Part shown: piece after piece, positions 20,032 through 28,818 of the stretch | Position numbering within the stretch: the stretch's first letter is position 1 | How the letters are laid out: every line of letters begins with the position of its first letter | Assembly (NCBI GenBank): GCA_038142325.1 | Contig: JAYQJW010000007.1 | Span: 1-64,000 of the forward strand | DNA length: 64,000 nucleotides | Direction of reading: 5' to 3' | Origin: Gammaproteobacteria bacterium | Lineage (GTDB): Bacteria; Pseudomonadota; Gammaproteobacteria; GCA-002705445; GCA-002716945 | The notes under the pieces: generated by a model | Database searches by the model: none | What the model was told of the DNA's origin: nothing | What the model saw: the letters and a program-made list of their open reading frames with translations, nothing else | Made by a program: the position numbers and the translations under genes

Positions 20032-21138
20032 TTTTTAAACCTATCTAGTGCTGAGCCACTTTTGATAACTTTTAATATTTCTTTGAGAGCATTGTTCTAT
20101 GCTGTTACCAGATATACGATGAAGGATGATGGCAGACCCAAGCTGAATACATGACATCATCGGACCATCTTTTCCAGAGAGCGCATCGAGTCCTGACTTT
20201 AGAGTTGCTTTAGCGATATCAATTGCATCAACTTTTGATTCTATTTTATCTTTTGTTTCTTTTCTTACAATATCTTCAGGAATATCGACTGCTCTTGATG
20301 ATTGTAAAATATCAAGGTCCTCTGGCTTAACTTCAAATACATCATCTTGATTATTTATATTCTTATAAAAATGCACTTTTCCAGCTTGTCTAAGCGATGG
20401 AATAATTCCTCCTTCTGTTCCTCTAATAACACTCGCAGAATTAAAGCCAGCATTTCTAGATAACTCTAGATATATCGGTGGATAGGGCTTATGAACGAAG
20501 CCTGTGAAATAATGATCATTTTTAGAAGTTACAGGTTTGACAAGAACTTCAACTGTAGTGATAACAGGGCGCTTGATAATTTTTTTCCTAAGCTCCATTA
20601 AACTATATAGTTTAGGATTAAAGATTGACTGATCAGCGTATGCCCACCCTATGTTTTTATCCTCTAATCGATTAATAATTTCTTCATGGCTGTTTAGGGA
20701 ATTATAACCAAGCTCTTTTAAGGTTAGATGATGAGTACATCCATATTTAGGCCCAACGGCAAGAACTCCATGAGAGAGAATCGGATAACCTAACTCAGCT
20801 AGAACTGGCAATATAAAAATTGATGATGGTAAATTTCGAGAAAAACCATCATAAGGGTCTGCAATATTTATAAGACTCTCACAAGATGTAGTTTTAGTGA
20901 TAGTTGATTCTATGATGGCATCATGCACCCCAAGATTTTCATCCATCGTCTCCCTTTTCATTCGAAGCGCAATTAGGAATATTGCGGATTGAACAGGATC
21001 AATCTCACCGTTAAGTATATCTGCCATCGTACGTTTTGCTTCCTCTCGGGAGATGTTTTTACTTAGCTCAGGTCCAGTAGCTATTCTTTGAATTACCGAT
21101 TTAATATTTTCTTGTATCCCTGTGTGACTTTTACTCAT
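20028..21138 (-). CDS. Anthranilate phosphoribosyltransferase-like (TrpD2/YbiB-like) protein; probable frameshift near 20082
   Basis: IATGPELSKNIS, AIFLIALRMKRET, PYDG, GPKYG and RGTEGG. The corrected C-terminus EILKVIKSGSALDRFKK* overlaps the Rieske start (GTGA). Confidence 0.75.
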
Positions 21139-21734
21139 TTAAATACAATCCATGTTGTTGCAATATATTTTGAACCATTTCTTACTGTAACACCACGATG
21201 TTCGTGGGTCCAAAAAGGTGGAAATATTACTAATTTTCCTTGTTCTGGTTTTATTTTAACTTTTTGATGTAAAAATTCCGTTTCACCACCAGGCCCTTCT
21301 ACATCGTTTAAGTACCAAATAGCAACAAGTTGTCTATCGCTCATTTGATGACTTCCGGTATCAACATGCCAATGAAAAAACTCATCTTTATCAGTCCTTT
21401 GTATCGCATAGCCAATATCCTTAAATTTGCCATTGAAAAAATCATATTCTTTTTTCATTTTTGCTAGCGCTTTGGAGAGGCTAATAAAAAATAATTCATC
21501 TATATCTTTCCAGGAGTCTTTACCGCTTATGACCATATCTGTAGATTGTTTGACAGAATCATTTTCTTCAAAGTTAGGACCAACTCTACCGCGGTAGTGA
21601 TCATCTTTTGAATCCTCAAATCGTTGAATTATTTCACTACATTTTTCAGGTGATAATTCATTATCAAATTCAAAAATGAAACTTCCAGGCGACTTTTCAA
21701 TAAGCCGTTTATCTATCTTAATTTCATTAGCCAT
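21135..21734 (-). CDS. 2OG-Fe(II) oxygenase (prolyl hydroxylase-like)
   Basis: WHVD, WYLNDV.G.GGETEF, FPPFWTHEHRG and KYIATTW. Confidence 0.88.
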   Translation of the reverse strand: MANEIKIDKRLIEKSPGSFIFEFDNELSPEKCSEIIQRFEDSKDDHYRGRVGPNFEENDSVKQSTDMVISGKDSWKDIDELFFISLSKALAKMKKEYDFFNGKFKDIGYAIQRTDKDEFFHWHVDTGSHQMSDRQLVAIWYLNDVEGPGGETEFLHQKVKIKPEQGKLVIFPPFWTHEHRGVTVRNGSKYIATTWIVFK

Positions 21735-21774
21735 AATATTTATATTCTGCAGTAAGTGTTATCATCTGAATAGT

Positions 21775-22338
21775 ATGGCAATAAGAATTAAAAGCAAGTG
21801 GTCTAAAACTGTTAAAAGAAAGAAGACGCCTGAAGACTATGGAAGTGCACTTTCATTTATATCTTGGAGACTATCTCTAGACAAAGCAAAGACGCTTCAT
21901 GGTGAAGATTTTGAATATGAAAATGACCATCAAAGGGTTTCTATAATCGTGGAGTATATGTCTTTTCAAGTGCACCTAGTAGATAGATTATTGTTTGAAG
22001 ATAAAACGGATGATGAATTTAGAAATCAAGTTATGAACTCTCTTGGTAAACAGTCATCAAGAATTATGCAAGAGAACTGTGAAGACCTATTTGGCCCAGG
22101 AGATTATAAAAAAGGATACATCAACACTTTAAACATGAGGTCATCAGAATATTCTGCATTTGAATTTTCAAGAACAGGGAGTAATTATTCTTTGTATAGA
22201 CATTTATCTCAAAAGTGTCAGGATGTTATGGGATACAGTCAGACGAATAAATGGGTGATGGATCAGATTATTGATATAGATTCGGTAGAAATACTTAAAA
22301 AAATACTTGAAGTTTATGACTCGGTAACAACTACCTAG
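21775..22338 (+). CDS. Conserved hypothetical protein of sulfur-oxidizer dsr neighbourhoods
   Basis: Likely start MAIRIKSKW; ALSFISWRL...LHGEDFEY..D.QR and WVMDQIIDID resemble proteins I recall near dsr clusters. Confidence 0.6.
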   Translation: MAIRIKSKWSKTVKRKKTPEDYGSALSFISWRLSLDKAKTLHGEDFEYENDHQRVSIIVEYMSFQVHLVDRLLFEDKTDDEFRNQVMNSLGKQSSRIMQENCEDLFGPGDYKKGYINTLNMRSSEYSAFEFSRTGSNYSLYRHLSQKCQDVMGYSQTNKWVMDQIIDIDSVEILKKILEVYDSVTTT

Positions 22339-22339
22339 T

Positions 22340-22534
22340 TTAAGCTTTATACTTTTCTACGTTATCAAAGTTGTTATTCTTACCGTCTTCGTATCCAGCC
22401 TGATATGCGTCAGTTACACGCTGCTCTTCTACTTCAGGCGAATCTTGGTAACCTTCTTGCCAGCCTAGGATGTACTGATCATCAGCATTCATGTTTTCAA
22501 GTTCTGTTACTTTATCAAAATATTCTTGGTTCAT
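22340..22534 (-). CDS. Alvin_2107-family sulfur globule oxidation protein
   Basis: YILGWQEGY..SPEVEEQRVTDAYQAGYEDGK signature; dsr context. Confidence 0.75.
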   Translation of the reverse strand: MNQEYFDKVTELENMNADDQYILGWQEGYQDSPEVEEQRVTDAYQAGYEDGKNNNFDNVEKYKA

Positions 22535-22767
22535 TATGTTCTTATAGACCCCTTAATTTGATGAGCAATGTCGACCAACCTATTCGCTAGTTTTTCGTGC
22601 TCTTCTTTATATTCTTTTACGATGCCTTTAGGATTATGGTGAATGTCCTTCTCTGTAATCCCTTTTTCTCTTTCAAGTTCCATGAATTTCTTTTGAATCT
22701 CTAATATTCTAGAGATGATTTTTTTTCTTTCTTCCTGAAGTTCTTTTTCATTAACTGCGTCAGTCAT
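22534..22767 (-). CDS. Small helical hypothetical protein
   Basis: Coupled to both neighbours by TAATG overlaps; QKKF...LVDIAHQIKGS. Confidence 0.7.
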   Translation of the reverse strand: MTDAVNEKELQEERKKIISRILEIQKKFMELEREKGITEKDIHHNPKGIVKEYKEEHEKLANRLVDIAHQIKGSIRT

Positions 22768-23105
22768 TAATATCCACCTTTTCTCCTACTCTCAGGTAAA
22801 CCACCGATTCTACCTGCTTGTTTACTTGGATTGCCAGGAAATAGATCAAATAATGTTTTTGAATCTATCTTTTCACCCCATAACTTTCCCATATCTTTAA
22901 TCATGTTCCTAGTGTTAGGCTGATTCTCTTTATTGTTAATAAATTCGTCTCTTAGATAATTTATGACATCCCAATGTCTTTCACTAAGTTCAATTCCTTC
23001 TTGTTGCGCGATTACTTTCGCTATATCCTCTGTCCAATCTTCTATATTAGTCAGAAAACCAGTATCTGTTGTAGATATTTCATTTCCGTTAACTTCAACT
23101 TTCAT
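22767..23105 (-). CDS. DsrC/TusE-family protein with no cysteines (RspA-type)
   Basis: TGFLTNIEDW, ELSERHWDVINYLR and LFDLFPGNPSKQAGRIGGLP; ends RRKGGY instead of CV; RBS GGAG. Confidence 0.88.
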   Translation of the reverse strand: MKVEVNGNEISTTDTGFLTNIEDWTEDIAKVIAQQEGIELSERHWDVINYLRDEFINNKENQPNTRNMIKDMGKLWGEKIDSKTLFDLFPGNPSKQAGRIGGLPESRRKGGY

Positions 23106-23131
23106 TTAAGTCTCCATGCCTGAATTCATCA

Positions 23132-23170
23132 ATATTGGAAAATTCTAATATACTAAAAAGTATAAGTCTA
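23132..23170 (-). promoter_or_regulatory. Sigma70 promoter (TAGACT-17-TAGAAT) with palindromic operator overlapping the -10
   Basis: Minus-strand -35 at 23165-23170 and -10 at 23142-23147; palindrome ATATTGGAAAATTCTAATAT at 23132-23151. Confidence 0.65.
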
Positions 23171-23186
23171 GATTGATGTCAGTATA

Positions 23187-23867
23187 TTATTCTTCTTCTT
23201 TGAAATTATTCACTGCATCTATTGATTTATGCGGAAGAAATATACCACATCCGTAGAGCCTCTTCTCTCCAACACCTTCTTCTTGTAGTCTAAGCGACTC
23301 TTTTTTAGAGAGATCTGCAATCATTAGGGATCTCGTATAAAAAGTTTCAGATCCAAATCTAATCATTTTCGATTGTCCGCATAAAGCTTTTCTGAGATTT
23401 ATGTTGTATTGCTTGAGCTCATTTTGAATTAGCTCAAGAAATTTATCCTCATCAATATTAGGATCACTTACGATGAATCTACAAAAAAGATCTTTAACTA
23501 TTACAAAACTTTTAACCTTTGATTTACCAATTTTCAATTTATTACCGAAAAGTTTGATCTCTTGACCCTCAATCGTTTTGATATGATCTATCTGACTTTT
23601 ATTGATACGCATAATAAGCTTGGCTCTTTTTGATAGAGGTATATTTTGACCATCTGGTCGTACCCAACCATTGCCCGACATCGGACCATGAAGCGTTTGA
23701 ATTGCATTCCTTTTGTCATTTTTAATCTCCGGTATGAGATTAAGTATCTCTGAGGAGAGTTCGAAGGCATGATCATATGGGAGTTCTTTACAGTCAACTG
23801 AGAATGATAACTCAATCATATCTGAGGTATTTGATGGAGGTTTATTTTCTTGTGATTCTTGCCACAT
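23187..23867 (-). CDS. cas6: Orphan Cas6 (Cmx6/MYXAN-like) RAMP endoribonuclease
   Basis: LPYDHAFELS (conserved His), LSKRAKLIMR, SLMIADLSKKESLRLQEEG and C-terminal G-loop GVGEKRLYGCGIFLP (GhGxxxxxGhG). Confidence 0.85.
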   Translation of the reverse strand: MWQESQENKPPSNTSDMIELSFSVDCKELPYDHAFELSSEILNLIPEIKNDKRNAIQTLHGPMSGNGWVRPDGQNIPLSKRAKLIMRINKSQIDHIKTIEGQEIKLFGNKLKIGKSKVKSFVIVKDLFCRFIVSDPNIDEDKFLELIQNELKQYNINLRKALCGQSKMIRFGSETFYTRSLMIADLSKKESLRLQEEGVGEKRLYGCGIFLPHKSIDAVNNFKEEE

Positions 23868-23869
23868 AA

Positions 23870-24064
23870 TTATTCTTTTATGTATCCACTGAAAACACTT
23901 TCTACACGATCTTGCCAGTTTTCAGGAGTATCAGGAAAAGGAGGTTTCAAATCAAATCTTATAAACATTTCGCCTTCTATTGCTTTTTGTTTTATCACTT
24001 CTAAAAACTCATCAAATGTTTCAACATCCTTATGTTCAATTAATAGCGTGCTCAAATACAACAT
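23870..24064 (-). CDS. Small conserved protein of dsr clusters
   Basis: MLYLS...FDEFLEVIK...DLKPPFPDTPENWQDRVESVF; coupled to both neighbours; no Cys. Confidence 0.7.
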   Translation of the reverse strand: MLYLSTLLIEHKDVETFDEFLEVIKQKAIEGEMFIRFDLKPPFPDTPENWQDRVESVFSGYIKE

Positions 24065-24891
24065 TATAATCTCTCGTATGATCTAATCCTTAAAAGCTTC
24101 CTTTGTACTTTATCATCTTTAAATGAATTTCTTCCATGTAAAATATTATTACTCAAGATTCCCTCATTTTTAGATAGCTTGTAAGTAATAGAATACTTGG
24201 AACAATTATTTTCAATAACATTTATCAATTTAGACATAGCTGTTAATGTATTGTCACTCATCTTGATATTCTCTTTTCTCATAGAAAATCTCATATGCAA
24301 TTTTTCATAATCATTATCGAATGAAAAAATATATGTAGATATTTCTGATCTTTTTGAACCTTGACTTTCAGGAATTGTTATAGCTCTTTTATTCATTAAA
24401 ACTTCTATATCATCGTAACTCAGTACATACTCTCTCATAGCTAATTCATGATCTAACAGGTAATTTTCACCGCCATCATCAGCTGGGTTAATGCAATGGA
24501 GCAACCATGAAAACAATGGTTTCTTATCATAGTTCCCATCGGTGTGCCAATTTAGAGCCTTATTTGTATAGGGGATATATTGTATTTTCTGATTTTTAAT
24601 TGATGAAATTGTACTTATCTCATTTGCCTCAATGTTGTTACAGTCAAATGTTTTCATCCCTACGGCTTTTGCAAAGTCTAAAAGACATGAATTGGACTCT
24701 AAATCTCTATTACTTCTATACAAACAACTGTTGAATCTATCCAATGTTGATCTAATTTTAGATATTTCATTTTTTGTAGTGCGGTTAATGTCTTTAATTT
24801 CCACAGATATTTCATTGATGTTTTTAGGGATATTGTTCTCTTTCTGGGAAGCCCATTTAAGGAATTTGCTTGATTTTGAGCTTAGAAACAT
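24064..24891 (-). CDS. TauD/TfdA-family dioxygenase-like protein
   Basis: YIPYTNKALNWHTDG, LLHCINPA..GGEN and NNILHGRNSF...RKLLRIR (HxD...H...R). Confidence 0.82.
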   Translation of the reverse strand: MFLSSKSSKFLKWASQKENNIPKNINEISVEIKDINRTTKNEISKIRSTLDRFNSCLYRSNRDLESNSCLLDFAKAVGMKTFDCNNIEANEISTISSIKNQKIQYIPYTNKALNWHTDGNYDKKPLFSWLLHCINPADDGGENYLLDHELAMREYVLSYDDIEVLMNKRAITIPESQGSKRSEISTYIFSFDNDYEKLHMRFSMRKENIKMSDNTLTAMSKLINVIENNCSKYSITYKLSKNEGILSNNILHGRNSFKDDKVQRKLLRIRSYERL

Positions 24892-25035: not shown

Positions 25036-26292
25036 GTGAAAAAACATGATACACCAATGATCGATGAGCTAGAAAACGGGCCATGGCCTAGTTTTATAAG
25101 CGGCATAAAAAAATTAAGAGATACACACCCAGATAACAGAATTAATGAAATGACAAACGACCTTCTTGGTCAACTTGAGCATTCATATGAAACACGCAAA
25201 GGATATTGGAAAGGTGGGACAGTGAGTGTCTATGGTTATGGTGGCGGAATCATTCCTAGGTTTTCTGAAGTTGGTGCTGCATTCCCTGCATCTAAAGAAT
25301 TCCACACACTAAGAGTACAGCCTCCTGCTGGTAACTTCTATTCAACAAGCATGCTAAGAAAATTAGCAGATAGCTGGGAAAAGCATGGATCAGGCTTAGT
25401 AACATTTCATGGTCAAACAGGAAACATCATGTTCATCGGCTCAACTACCGAAAACACACAGCATTTCTTTGATGAAATCAATGATTATGGTTTTGATTTA
25501 GGTGGTGCGGGACCATGTGTTAGAACAGCAATGTCATGTGTTGGTGCAGGACGATGTGAAATGTCTAACGTAAACGAACATAAAGCCCACAGACTTTTAG
25601 TAAATAACTTTACAGACGACGTTCACAGACCGGCTTTACCATACAAATTCAAATTTAAAGTGTCTGGATGTGCTAATGACTGTATGAATTCTATCGAAAG
25701 AGCTGATATGTCTGTCATCGGAACTTGGAGAGATGCAATTAAAGTTGATCAAGACGAATTCAAGAAATACGTTGAGATGAAAGGTCGCAAGTATGTAATT
25801 GACAATATCGTAACAAGGTGTCCAACTAATGCAATTTCACTTAACGATGATAATTCAATAGAAATTGATAATCAGAACTGTGTCAAATGCATGCATTGTC
25901 TAAATGTTGTACCTAAAGCACTTCATCCTGGAGATGATAAAGGTGTAACGATACTTATTGGCGGTAAAAGAACTCTTAAAATCGGTGATTTAATGGGTAC
26001 AGTTATTGTTCCATTTATGAAGTTAGAAAAAGAAGAGGATTGGGAGAGACTAGTCGAGATTGCAGAAGAAACAATTGATTTCTGGGCTGATAATGCTCTT
26101 GAACATGAGAGATGTGGCGAGATGATTGAGAGAATTGGTCTTGTTAACTTCCTTGATGGAATTGGCATCGATGTTGACCCTAACATGGTAGCTAATCCTA
26201 GAGAGAGTTCTTACGTAAGGACCGATGATTGGGATGATGAGGCAGTAAAATGGTATGAAAAAGCCGATCAAAGAGCAAAGGATTCAGCATAA
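25036..26292 (+). CDS. dsrA: Reverse-type dissimilatory sulfite reductase alpha subunit
   Basis: TPMIDELENGPWPSF, WKGG, siroheme Cys motifs CVGAGRC and GCANDC, ferredoxin CVKCMHC. Confidence 0.98.
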   Translation: MKKHDTPMIDELENGPWPSFISGIKKLRDTHPDNRINEMTNDLLGQLEHSYETRKGYWKGGTVSVYGYGGGIIPRFSEVGAAFPASKEFHTLRVQPPAGNFYSTSMLRKLADSWEKHGSGLVTFHGQTGNIMFIGSTTENTQHFFDEINDYGFDLGGAGPCVRTAMSCVGAGRCEMSNVNEHKAHRLLVNNFTDDVHRPALPYKFKFKVSGCANDCMNSIERADMSVIGTWRDAIKVDQDEFKKYVEMKGRKYVIDNIVTRCPTNAISLNDDNSIEIDNQNCVKCMHCLNVVPKALHPGDDKGVTILIGGKRTLKIGDLMGTVIVPFMKLEKEEDWERLVEIAEETIDFWADNALEHERCGEMIERIGLVNFLDGIGIDVDPNMVANPRESSYVRTDDWDDEAVKWYEKADQRAKDSA

Positions 26293-27377
26293 TGAGTGAG
26301 AACGCAAAAAAAGAAATGAGATCACCAATAGAGACAGGTTGTCCTGATGGTTTTCAATATATGCATCCAACGATGCGTAAAAACTTTGGTCAGTGGAAGT
26401 ATCATGAACATCCACGCCCTGGAGTACTTCTTCATGTCGCAAACAGTGGAGATGAAATTTGGACAGTAAGAGCTGGCACACAACGTATATTAGATGTATT
26501 TACACTTAGAACACTATGCGACATAGGCGATGAATTTGCAGATGGTTATGTGAGATTTACCATCAGAAGTAACATTGAGTATATGGTTAAAGACAAAGAT
26601 AAAGTACAACCTTTAATCGATGCGCTTGAAAAAGAAGGATTTATAGTTGGTGGTACAAAAAATTCCGTAGCTATGATTTCACATACACAAGGCTGGCTAC
26701 ACTGTGATATACCAGGTACTGATGCATCCGGCGTTGTAAAAGCTATGATGGATGAACTTATTGATGAATTTAGAAATAATGATATGCCTAACCGTGTTCA
26801 TTTAACAACATCATGTTGTCAGATAAATTGTGGTGGACAAGGTGATATTGCGATCAATATCCAACACACCAAACCACCAAAAATTAATCATGATCTTGTT
26901 TCAAACGTTTGTGAGAGACCATCTGTAGTAGCTCGTTGTCCTGTGGCAGCGATCAGACCAGCAATGGTCAATGGCAAACCATCACTTGAAGTTGATGAAA
27001 AAAAATGTATTTGTTGTGGTGCGTGCTTTCCACCATGCCCACCTATGCAAATTAATGATCCAGAACACAGTAAATTAGCAATTTGGGTCGGTGGTAATCA
27101 CTCTAATGCGAGAAGCAAACCATCTTTCCAAAAACTGGTTGCAGCTGGTATACCTAATAATCCACCAAGATGGCCTGAAGCAACAGCAATTGTTAAAAGA
27201 ATATTAAGCGCTTATAAGGAAGATGCTCGTGATTGGGAAAGAATAAACGATTGGATAGAACGAATTGGATGGCCAAGATTCTTTGAACTAACAGAGCTTC
27301 CATTTACTAAACACCATATTGATAATTGGCGTGGTGGTAGAAAAACACTTAATTCATCAGCATACGTTAGATTTTAA
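26292..27377 (+). CDS. dsrB: Reverse-type dissimilatory sulfite reductase beta subunit
   Basis: HTQGWLHCDIP, CCQINCG, CICCGACFPPCP and PNNPPRWPE. Confidence 0.98.
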   Translation: MSENAKKEMRSPIETGCPDGFQYMHPTMRKNFGQWKYHEHPRPGVLLHVANSGDEIWTVRAGTQRILDVFTLRTLCDIGDEFADGYVRFTIRSNIEYMVKDKDKVQPLIDALEKEGFIVGGTKNSVAMISHTQGWLHCDIPGTDASGVVKAMMDELIDEFRNNDMPNRVHLTTSCCQINCGGQGDIAINIQHTKPPKINHDLVSNVCERPSVVARCPVAAIRPAMVNGKPSLEVDEKKCICCGACFPPCPPMQINDPEHSKLAIWVGGNHSNARSKPSFQKLVAAGIPNNPPRWPEATAIVKRILSAYKEDARDWERINDWIERIGWPRFFELTELPFTKHHIDNWRGGRKTLNSSAYVRF

Positions 27378-27783: not shown

Positions 27784-28170
27784 ATGGAAGATCAAGAGTT
27801 AGAATCTGGAATTGTAAAAAAATTCATATATGTAAATAGAAAAGCTCCTCACGGAACAATATATGCACATGAGGCTCTTGAAGTTGTTTTGATCGCAGCA
27901 GCATTTGAGCAAGATGTATCATTAGCGTTCATTGATGATGGTGTGTATCAACTTAAAAAAGGTCAAAACACAGATGGTATAGCAACGAAAAACTTCACTA
28001 AAACATTTGGAGCTCTAGAAATGTATGATGTTGAAAAACTTTATGTAGAAAAAGAGTCTTTAGAAGAACGCGGTCTTAGTGAGGATGATTTGTCTGTTGA
28101 TGTTGAAGTTTTAGCATCTTCAGATTTAAAAAAACTATTTAATGAATCTGAGGTATTTTTCAACTTCTAA
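27784..28170 (+). CDS. dsrF: Sulfurtransferase DsrF
   Basis: RKAPHGTIYAHEALE, AFIDDGVYQL and SLEERGL. Confidence 0.95.
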   Translation: MEDQELESGIVKKFIYVNRKAPHGTIYAHEALEVVLIAAAFEQDVSLAFIDDGVYQLKKGQNTDGIATKNFTKTFGALEMYDVEKLYVEKESLEERGLSEDDLSVDVEVLASSDLKKLFNESEVFFNF

Positions 28171-28473
28171 TGTTACATACGATAAACAAGTCGCCTTTTG
28201 AGAAAGATAGCCTTAAAACCTGTCTAAGATACGCAGAGAAGGGCTCATCAGTATTGTTCATAGAAGATGCTGTTTATGCATGTACAAAAGGAACAACCTT
28301 CGAGAAAGCAGATTACAGAGCACCAAGAAAATATAAGTTTTTATGTGCTTGGACCTGACCTTGATGCGAGAGGACTTGATAATTCGAATTTAACAAATAA
28401 TATAGAAATTATAGATTATAAAGGTTTCGTTAAACTTGTAGCTGATAACGAAAAAACTCAAAATTGGCTTTAA
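28170..28473 (+). CDS. dsrH: Sulfurtransferase DsrH; frameshift near 28308
   Basis: MLHTINKSPF...LFIEDAVY in one frame, then YVLGPDLDARG...IDYKGFVKLV...QNWL in the next. Confidence 0.9.
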
Positions 28474-28485
28474 CAGGAGAAAAAG

Positions 28486-28818
28486 ATGGCAATTGAAGTA
28501 AATGGCAAATCTTTTGAAACAGACGAAGAGGGATATTTAGCAAACCTCAACGACTGGGAAAAAGACGTAGCAACAGTAATGGCAAAAGAAGATGATATTG
28601 AACTATCTGATGATCATTGGGAAATTATTAATTTCCTCCGTGAGTACTATGAGGAATATCAAATTGCGCCAGCTGTAAGAGTTCTTACAAAAGCTGTAGG
28701 TAAGAAACTTGGAAAAGACAAAGGAAACAGTAAATATTTATATGAGCTATTTCCATATGGACCAGGTAAACAGGCTTGTAAATTCGCTGGGCTTCCAAAA
28801 CCAACTGGGTGCGTATAA
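28486..28818 (+). CDS. dsrC: Sulfur carrier DsrC
   Basis: C-terminal arm GPGKQACKFAGLPKPTGCV with both cysteines. Confidence 0.97.
   Translation: MAIEVNGKSFETDEEGYLANLNDWEKDVATVMAKEDDIELSDDHWEIINFLREYYEEYQIAPAVRVLTKAVGKKLGKDKGNSKYLYELFPYGPGKQACKFAGLPKPTGCV

Follow-up and report, generated by a model that had tools for sequence, protein, structure and literature searches.

Cas6 proteins inside and outside CRISPR immunity

Cas6 is normally an RNA-cutting enzyme of CRISPR immunity. Here we describe a Cas6-like gene that lies beside the sulfur-oxidation gene dsrA in a stretch of 64,000 nucleotides from a gammaproteobacterium (positions 1 to 64,000 of contig JAYQJW010000007.1, assembly GCA_038142325.1), which we call the window. 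The closest described proteins are the Cas6 of type I-MYXAN/I-B systems (Cmx6; structures 8fcj_B and 8fcu_B). They belong to the same hidden Markov model (HMM) family as the proteins of the kind encoded in the window, which we call dsr-type, and have a double-RAMP fold and a similar length. The two groups have in common a 'P-DH' histidine and the G-loop LQ-xGxGxxRxxGCG-F, at an identity of 21-26%. The dsr-type proteins differ by three additions, namely an N-terminal Trp-acidic tail (MWQE), a 9-11-residue SGNGWxRP insert (residues 63-71), and a C-terminal HKGIxAV tail, and their residues 130 and 179 are Arg instead of the His of the CRISPR-linked protein of locus L009. Their genes lack cas3, cas8, cas7, cas5, cas4-cas1 and cas2 neighbours as well as an array, unlike those of locus L023 and of the Gloeothece plasmid NC_011737.1. 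The context typical of I-MYXAN loci (cas6-cas3-cas8a1-devR-cas5-cas4/cas1-cas2) was never found around dsr-type genes in the loci examined.

Parts of CRISPR systems are known from non-immune or array-free roles: the relevant passages of PMC8730458 name the cas5-cas6-cas7-cas8 genes of Streptomyces associated with a STAND NTPase, haloarchaeal HRAMP, the CRISPR-associated transposons (CASTs), and type IV systems. As described in those passages, such systems resemble the dsr-type in that Cas proteins occur without adaptation module or array and are tied to other genes. However, they bring several effector subunits together and most are still guide-RNA machines or linked to defence, whereas the dsr-type is a single Cas6 surrounded by genes of core energy metabolism. 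In their passages on Cas6, two recent reviews of CRISPR diversity (PMC8730458, PMC12669027) do not mention a dsr-linked Cas6. Full-text searches of the literature gave no paper on one, and a mention in supplementary tables is possible. Cas6 and dsr terms do occur together in PMC5944118, PMC5728499, and PMC10952691, in passages that refer to ordinary CRISPR loci.

The window encodes a Cas6-family protein next to dsrA

The genome that contains the window has 1,095,520 bases in 9 contigs (98.46% complete, 5.33% contamination, ~32% G+C). We named the open reading frames (ORFs) of the window using Pfam and NCBIfam profile searches. The ORF at 23187-23867 (- strand, 226 amino acids) matches PF09559 over the full profile (1-191 of 191, E 1.9e-53) and scores 125 bits with TIGR02807, the Cas6/Cmx6 equivalog model, whose curated cut-off is 98.85. 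Annotation pipelines using this model will therefore assign the Cas6/Cmx6 name, and databases already name relatives 'type I-MYXAN CRISPR-associated protein Cas6/Cmx6'. Among solved structures, the sole sequence relative is 8fcj_B (Cas6 from the Cascade of a type I-B CRISPR-associated transposon), which was matched by the single sequence (E 9e-8) and, at full length, by a profile of 47 family members (E 2.9e-30). The AlphaFold2 model made from a 47-member alignment (mean pLDDT 87.7, pTM 0.83) consists of two beta-alpha-beta domains. Its top Foldseek matches were 8fcu_B (E 1.1e-15) and 8fcj_B, with TM scores of 0.73-0.77, followed by the Cas6 of Pyrococcus and Thermus and by Cse3/CasE. Of the 43 matches at E≤0.001, the first 41 were structures of Cas6, Cse3, or CasE. 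As judged from the profile matches and the predicted structure, this ORF encodes a genuine Cas6-family protein with a double-RAMP fold.

A preliminary description of the locus had already seen in it a full-length Cas6/Cmx6-like ORF with a DH histidine and the G-loop GVGEKRLYGCG, and both elements are there, at D32-H33 and at residues 198-208. The G-loop aligns with that of 8fcj_B and only weakly with the CasE loop (profile E ~0.75). To describe conservation we used a family alignment of 196 rows, made of 54 locus sequences plus 142 full-length representatives of the matches that a search of 1.84 billion proteins gave (782 at E≤0.001, 341 at E≤1e-10). H33 is conserved in 180 rows, R81 in 193, R87 in 194, and K214 in 186, and the glycines of the G-loop are equally well kept (G198 in 191, G200 in 188, G206 in 193, G208 in 194). 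The fold, the G-loop, the basic residues, and the histidine are thus retained across divergence down to ~30% identity. Residues particular to the dsr-type are also nearly invariant: W2 (181 rows), N66 (180), G67 (195), and W68 (191).

The gene is the third of a unit on the - strand that encodes, in order, a TauD-like protein, a 64-residue protein (orf64), the Cas6-like protein, a DsrC-like protein, a 77-residue protein (orf77), and an Alvin_2107-like protein. Three of the junctions are 1-nt overlaps (TAATG), orf64 and the Cas6-like gene are 2 nt apart, and the loosest junction is the 81-nt spacer that separates the Cas6-like gene from the DsrC-like gene. Divergent from this unit is dsrA (25036-26292, + strand), with a start-to-start spacing of 144 nt. 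The preliminary description had the packed unit and its orientation right. It had also placed the Cas6 gene inside a sulfur-oxidation operon, which has to be amended: the gene is outside the dsr operon and part of a separate, divergently oriented accessory module.

The Cas6-like gene co-occurs with dsrA across Gammaproteobacteria

We searched 301 genomes of the window's class (Gammaproteobacteria), each at least 90% complete, for dsrA using the TIGR02064 cut-off and for the Cas6-like gene using PF09559 matches. PF09559 was found in 95 genomes and dsrA in 92. Both were present in 89, PF09559 only in 6, dsrA only in 3, and neither in 203. The sampled genomes are kin, so these counts describe a pattern and do not amount to a statistical test. 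In 71 of the 89 genomes the two matches share a contig, with starts separated by 1,458-5,113 nt; in the other 18 they are on different contigs (15 genomes) or far apart on the same one (3 genomes). The preliminary description had mentioned similar annotations beside dsr genes in other sulfur oxidisers, and this linkage is indeed strongly conserved across families.

The exceptions mostly dissolve when inspected. Among the six genomes with PF09559 only, two have dsrA cut by contig ends (G219, G296) and two have the module at a contig end, where dsrA would come next (G148, G178). In the remaining two (G057, G307) the gene belongs to a true CRISPR-Cas locus whose contig also encodes Cas1; the locus of G057 encodes a WYL regulator, Cas6, Cas3, Cas8b, Cas5, and Cas4-Cas1. 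Two of the three genomes with dsrA only have a contig end at most 650 nt upstream of this gene. The third (G246) has a lone dsrA (L090, G246:C85, 6503-7702), with no dsrB or module gene within 6.5 kb on each side. In the window's own family, the gene is present in 29 of the 36 other genomes, all of ~1 Mb; six of the seven genomes without it are 57-90% complete and one is 92% complete. In summary, the dsr-type Cas6-like gene is, in the window's class, a fixed member of a module placed head-to-head with dsrA. This module is conserved across many families of sulfur oxidisers that dominate in the environment, among them marine lineages with reduced genomes of ~1 Mb.

The genome lacks the partners of a CRISPR system

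In line with the preliminary description, neither an array nor another cas gene was found in the 64-kb window, which contains no direct-repeat family and no Rfam match at gathering score. The search extended to the whole genome gave the same picture: there was no match to Cas1, Cas2, Cas5, or Cas7/DevR, and the lone match to the Cas3 core is a helicase (34 bits for a cut-off of 102). A k-mer scan of the genome revealed no repeat-spacer pattern and TRF revealed no tandem array with a period of 40-120, in both cases with the caveat that assemblies often omit repeats. The sole match of the array scan, a 3-copy k-mer, was rejected as a CRISPR array; it is a 30-nt tandem repeat of ~9.4 copies in a Lys/Ala-rich ORF (G000:C2:156471-156760). 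Since arrays can drop out of assemblies, absence from the genome itself is no proof on its own, and it is the comparative data that carry the case. Cas1 is encoded somewhere in 50 of the 89 genomes with both the Cas6-like gene and dsrA and is missing from 39, and it is found in 74 of the 206 PF09559-negative genomes of the class. The presence of Cas1 does not track the Cas6-like gene.

Could the protein be an ordinary Cas6 that processes CRISPR RNA (crRNA), with an array and effectors located elsewhere or left unassembled? The score above the TIGR02807 equivalog cut-off, the frequent loss of arrays from assemblies, and the 50 genomes with Cas1 would all agree with it. However, a genome that is 98.46% complete should then not be devoid of Cas1, Cas2, Cas3, Cas5, and Cas7/DevR, nor should Cas1 be missing from so many genomes that have the gene. 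Furthermore, true Cmx6 are found in cas6-cas3-cas8-cas7-cas5-cas4/cas1-cas2 loci and on a separate branch (see below), whereas the neighbours of dsr-type genes are the same non-cas genes in all families examined. We regard this explanation as close to refuted.

The dsr-type is a separate branch under purifying selection

We compared the dsr-type with three CRISPR-linked Cmx6 proteins, those of G057, G307, and the Gloeothece plasmid, the latter from a canonical cas6-cas3-cas8a1-devR-cas5-cas4/cas1-cas2 locus. All three (3/3) share the 'P-DH' histidine and the G-loop with the dsr-type, and all are devoid of the N-terminal tail, the insert, and the C-terminal tail. In the FastTree phylogeny, which has no independent root, a branch of length 0.86 with local support of 98 splits the two CRISPR-linked genome copies from the 52 module-linked loci. 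The wider Cas6 superfamily is CRISPR-linked, and recruitment out of CRISPR would thus be the economical direction for this unrooted tree. From these sequence comparisons, we conclude that the dsr-type forms a branch of its own in the Cas6/Cmx6 family, independent of CRISPR. We found no viral copies of the family in viral contigs or phage records.

The Cas6-like gene is under purifying selection. It differs from that of a 99%-identical relative by 14 synonymous and 3 non-synonymous changes, its frame is intact in all loci read, and it is full-length wherever no contig end cuts it. These observations are at odds with the idea that the gene is a functionless, decaying leftover of a former CRISPR locus, which the lack of CRISPR partners would suggest and nothing else does. 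Together with the retention of the gene in genomes of ~1 Mb and the synteny kept across many families, the excess of synonymous changes and the intact frames refute it.

The proposal that a CRISPR protein was co-opted here is therefore upheld as far as recruitment and dsr linkage are concerned, both of which are supported by the CRISPR-free genome and the conserved linkage: the predicted structure has the RAMP fold, neither a cognate array nor a Cascade was found in the genome, and the association with dsr genes is conserved across genomes. On the evidence of profiles, predicted structure, and gene context, this seems to be a lone Cas6 that was recruited to a conserved set of accessory genes for sulfur oxidation in Gammaproteobacteria. 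One practical consequence is that TIGR02807 and PF09559 label such genes 'CRISPR-associated' in CRISPR-free genomes, so that CRISPR systems are overcounted in sulfur oxidisers and the dsr-linked family stays hidden.

Composition of the accessory module

To describe the module we used 26 wide loci from many families, 20 of them chosen among the 71 dsrA-adjacent cases and 6 from a first look. The order dsrMCFEBA< TauD-like> orf64> (orf237>) Cas6-like> DsrC-like> (orf77>) is the same across families. As detected by tblastn, the genes for the TauD-like protein and orf64 are each present in 24 of the 26 loci, that for the Cys-less DsrC-like protein in 25, orf77 in 14, and orf237, which encodes a 237-residue protein of no known family and is missing from the window, in 10. 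A second group of genes, encoding a 2-oxoglutarate (2OG)-Fe oxygenase, orf220, Alvin_2107, and a TrpD2-like protein, is found 1.4-5 kb further in other families and is packed straight against the first in the window's family. When the Cas6-like gene is away from dsrA, it keeps TauD-like, orf64, orf237, or DsrC-like neighbours in 9 of 11 loci, the exceptions being those of G058 and G163. Taken as a whole, this module upstream of dsrA (TauD-like, orf64, orf237, Cas6-like, Cys-less DsrC-like, orf77, Alvin_2107) is uncharacterised and provides a lead for the biology of Dsr.

The first gene of the unit (24064-24891, - strand) encodes a protein of 275 amino acids similar to Fe(II)/2OG dioxygenases of the TauD family (PF02668, E 1.7e-10). 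Its H116, D118, H252, and R264/R268 do not vary among the 28 sequences compared; the metal and 2OG ligands are retained, so the module contains real enzymes. The next, orf64 (23870-24064, - strand), lies 2 nt upstream of the Cas6-like gene; it has no Pfam or NCBIfam match and 10 invariant columns in an alignment of 30 sequences. A protein Atlas cluster names it 'sulfur relay protein DsrC', which we rejected: compared with the DsrC-like profile it had a probability of 0.3%, that is, no homology, so the label is probably annotation noise.

The DsrC-like neighbour (22767-23105, - strand, 112 amino acids) matches PF04358 (E 1.8e-33) and TIGR03342 (99.5 bits) over its full length and thus belongs to the DsrC/TusE/RspA family. 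It ends in ...GLPESRRKGGY. Both sulfur-carrier cysteines of DsrC are missing, so it cannot carry sulfur. The true DsrC of the window (28486-28818) has the two C-terminal cysteines and ends in ...GLPKPTGCV. The part of PMC8477390 that deals with this family names Cys-less 'RspA'-type members, with which the DsrC-like protein would group. Across 30 sequences from many families, it has 24 invariant columns, including R108, K109, G110, G111, and Y112, and this strict conservation of RKGGY suggests that the tail itself is a recognition or modification site. Downstream lie orf77 (22534-22767, - strand), conserved and devoid of Pfam and NCBIfam matches, and the gene for a small protein of the Alvin_2107 family (22340-22534, - strand; NF049856, 83.7 bits for a cut-off of 60).

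Beyond the unit, the conserved neighbourhood includes orf220 (21676-22338, + strand, start uncertain), which has no Pfam or NCBIfam match, is found near the module in other families, and belongs to Atlas clusters that are, without exception, named 'hypothetical'. It further includes a 2OG-Fe(II) oxygenase of the prolyl-hydroxylase type (21135-21734, - strand; PF13640, E 9e-15) and a TrpD2/YbiB-like protein of glycosyl-transferase family 3 (20041-21138, - strand; PF02885, E 4.2e-15). The NCBIfam matches of the latter (PRK07394 and YbiB-type models) are all under their cut-offs, and its gene recurs beside Alvin_2107 in other families. On the other side of the module are dsrA and dsrB (25036-27377, + strand), dsrA matching TIGR02064 with 612 bits at 25060-26262.

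Possible functions of the Cas6-like protein

The most likely explanation, to which we give roughly an even chance (about 0.5), is that this Cas6, once taken over from CRISPR, has kept RNA binding or cutting and now exerts it within the sulfur-oxidation regulon. The G-loop and the conserved arginines would hold one specific RNA stem-loop, which the retained His33 may then cleave. The action of the protein would be post-transcriptional: it would process or stabilise transcripts of the sulfur-oxidation regulon or, alternatively, hold RNA for the enzymes of the module. The move of a single Cas protein, on its own, from CRISPR immunity into central metabolism would be a clear instance of recruitment, and if the protein is a sequence-specific RNA-binding or RNA-cutting factor, it would give a direct handle on the post-transcriptional control of sulfur oxidation.

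Several observations weigh against a role of this kind. We found no RNA element that the protein might recognise. The 96-nt Cas6-to-DsrC-like spacer of the window is no more stably folded than shuffled versions of it (z -1.5), and in 41 loci this spacer shows no shared hairpin, only promoter-like TAGAAT elements. Inspection by eye of the 700 nt upstream of dsrA in 28 loci revealed no common motif or hairpin, exact 15-mers with at least 4 copies define no family of dispersed repeats in the genome, and the lack of Rfam families in the window points the same way. The catalytic role of H33 is not established by sequence comparison: the equivalent position is Asn in the solved relative 8fcj_B. The neighbours of the gene are mainly oxygenases without a proven link to RNA. 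Finally, the Trp tail, insert, and C-terminal tail gained by the dsr-type branch suggest a new partner, which may not be RNA.

The distribution of the gene beyond the class is a further point on this side. In a phylum sample of 251 genomes, drawn differently from the class sample, PF09559 was found in two (the window's genome and G163) and dsrA above cut-off in 39. None of the 37 dsrA-positive genomes from other classes has a PF09559 match. Only one of these 37 has orf64, and none has Alvin_2107, the latter a weak result given that the controls gave no match anywhere. These genomes do without the module, so its Cas6-like and DsrC-like part is one lineage's addition and no requirement of Dsr chemistry. 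Two of them have dsr clusters like those of the class, with a TauD-like gene head-to-head with dsrA and no Cas6-like gene, and the pairing of the TauD-like gene with dsrA is thus wider than the Cas6 linkage. In these two loci (L087, G487:C12, 9339-10764; L088, G462:C5, 10251-11407), the TauD-like gene is followed by a DUF6967 gene, and in one of them the siroheme synthase gene cysG comes next.

Two candidate elements were tried and discarded. A 6-bp hairpin in the window's spacer is disrupted in relatives, with no compensating changes. A motif common to the regions upstream of dsrA and of the DsrC-like gene, 'TATTAGAA...CAAT..GAT', was matched once as a composite, and its 10-mer is no commoner than chance (24 found, 20.8 expected).

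Many of the same observations would suit a RAMP fold re-used without RNA, as a scaffold, chaperone, or ligand-binding subunit working with the TauD-like protein, orf64/orf237, and the Cys-free DsrC-like protein, for example to modify a protein, or a small molecule that carries sulfur and feeds or regulates Dsr. This is a serious rival, which we judge quite possible, if short of probable. The near-invariant W2, N66, G67, and W68 are missing from CRISPR-linked relatives, the coupling to module genes is kept in most loci away from dsrA (9/11), the intact ligands of the TauD-like protein speak for real enzymes in the module, and RNA elements were found neither in the spacer, nor upstream of dsrA, nor as dispersed repeats. 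Yet the G-loop, many invariant Arg/Lys, and the histidine shared with Cmx6 are conserved as strongly as the new features. Searching longer proteins with the family alignment revealed no forms fused with extra domains, which is weak evidence against such a partner role. A job that modelled the interaction of the Cas6-like protein with the TauD-like protein, orf64, and the DsrC-like protein gave a score of 0.00, which is evidence neither way with a set-up unlike that of the tool's calibration.

The oxygenases may alternatively be the key to the module. The Cas6-like protein could present structured RNA (tRNA, rRNA, or mRNA) to the Fe/2OG dioxygenases and the DsrC/TusE-like protein, for modification or for the repair of damage caused by the sulfite and persulfides of cytoplasmic Dsr chemistry. 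The neighbourhood encodes as many as three 2OG oxygenases, one TauD-like, one of the prolyl-hydroxylase type, and, in larger genomes, one of the PKHD type, with TrpD2/YbiB-like and TusE/DsrC-fold proteins nearby. Enzymes of the TauD family set sulfite free from C-sulfonates, and bisulfite reacts with single-stranded nucleic acids to give pyrimidine-6-sulfonate adducts. YbiB is a nucleic-acid-binding protein, and TusE acts in a tRNA-thiolation relay. However, the Cys-free DsrC-like protein cannot carry sulfur, and the dsrA-positive genomes of other classes manage without the Cas6-like gene. Dioxygenases also need O2, and many hosts of oxidative dsr genes live without it. We therefore find such RNA chemistry improbable. 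Its most specific form is likewise improbable: a Cas6 domesticated from I-MYXAN/I-B systems would serve as the RNA-recognition subunit of an RNA-directed module that includes 2OG dioxygenases, a DsrC/TusE-fold protein, and a TrpD2-like protein, and that modifies or repairs structured RNA where this comes into contact with sulfite and persulfides from the cytoplasmic Dsr pathway. If true, it would tie CRISPR-derived RNA recognition to sulfur redox stress, a connection not found in the literature searched.

What speaks for retained RNA binding or cutting is the combination of family membership and fold, the conserved G-loop, the invariant basic residues, and the histidine common to true Cmx6 with the absence of CRISPR partners, the co-occurrence and synteny with dsrA, and purifying selection on the gene.

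Promoter, expression, and other features of the locus

The 81-nt spacer contains TAGACT-17-TAGAAT (23142-23170, - strand), a candidate sigma-70-like promoter with 9 of 12 matches, of which TAGAAT recurs at this place in other families. Promoter-like matches in this region are fewer than in its shuffles. The evidence is weak, and the DsrC-like gene probably has a promoter of its own. We searched four metatranscriptome runs from four studies as assembled contigs, which indicate presence only and neither RNA ends nor levels. RNA contigs cover dsrA and the region 22424-23115 (DsrC-like, orf77, Alvin_2107), and those of three runs over this region end before the candidate promoter, which again is to be read as presence. 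A single RNA contig of 186 nt (23839-24024) takes in part of orf64 and the very start of the Cas6-like gene; the parts left uncovered prove nothing.

In larger genomes, the gaps between the two gene groups add a PKHD-type 2OG-Fe(II) hydroxylase, a GNAT acetyltransferase, and a two-domain DUF6866 protein (L081, 8335-11516; L073, 2248-3315; L078, 8224-11931). None of these is among the annotated genes of the window at ~19-29.6 kb. In one genome where dsrA is on another contig (L018, G058:C75, 8434-9960), a dsr-type Cas6-like gene lies beside genes for a SpoU-family RNA 2'-O-methyltransferase and a large glycosyltransferase. Within the dsr operon of the window, dsrH (28170-28473, + strand) is split into two overlapping frames, 28170-28358 and 28267-28473. 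The gene is a single ORF of ~102 codons in four relatives, which indicates a 1-nt indel near 28300-28335 in the window, either an assembly error or a real frameshift.

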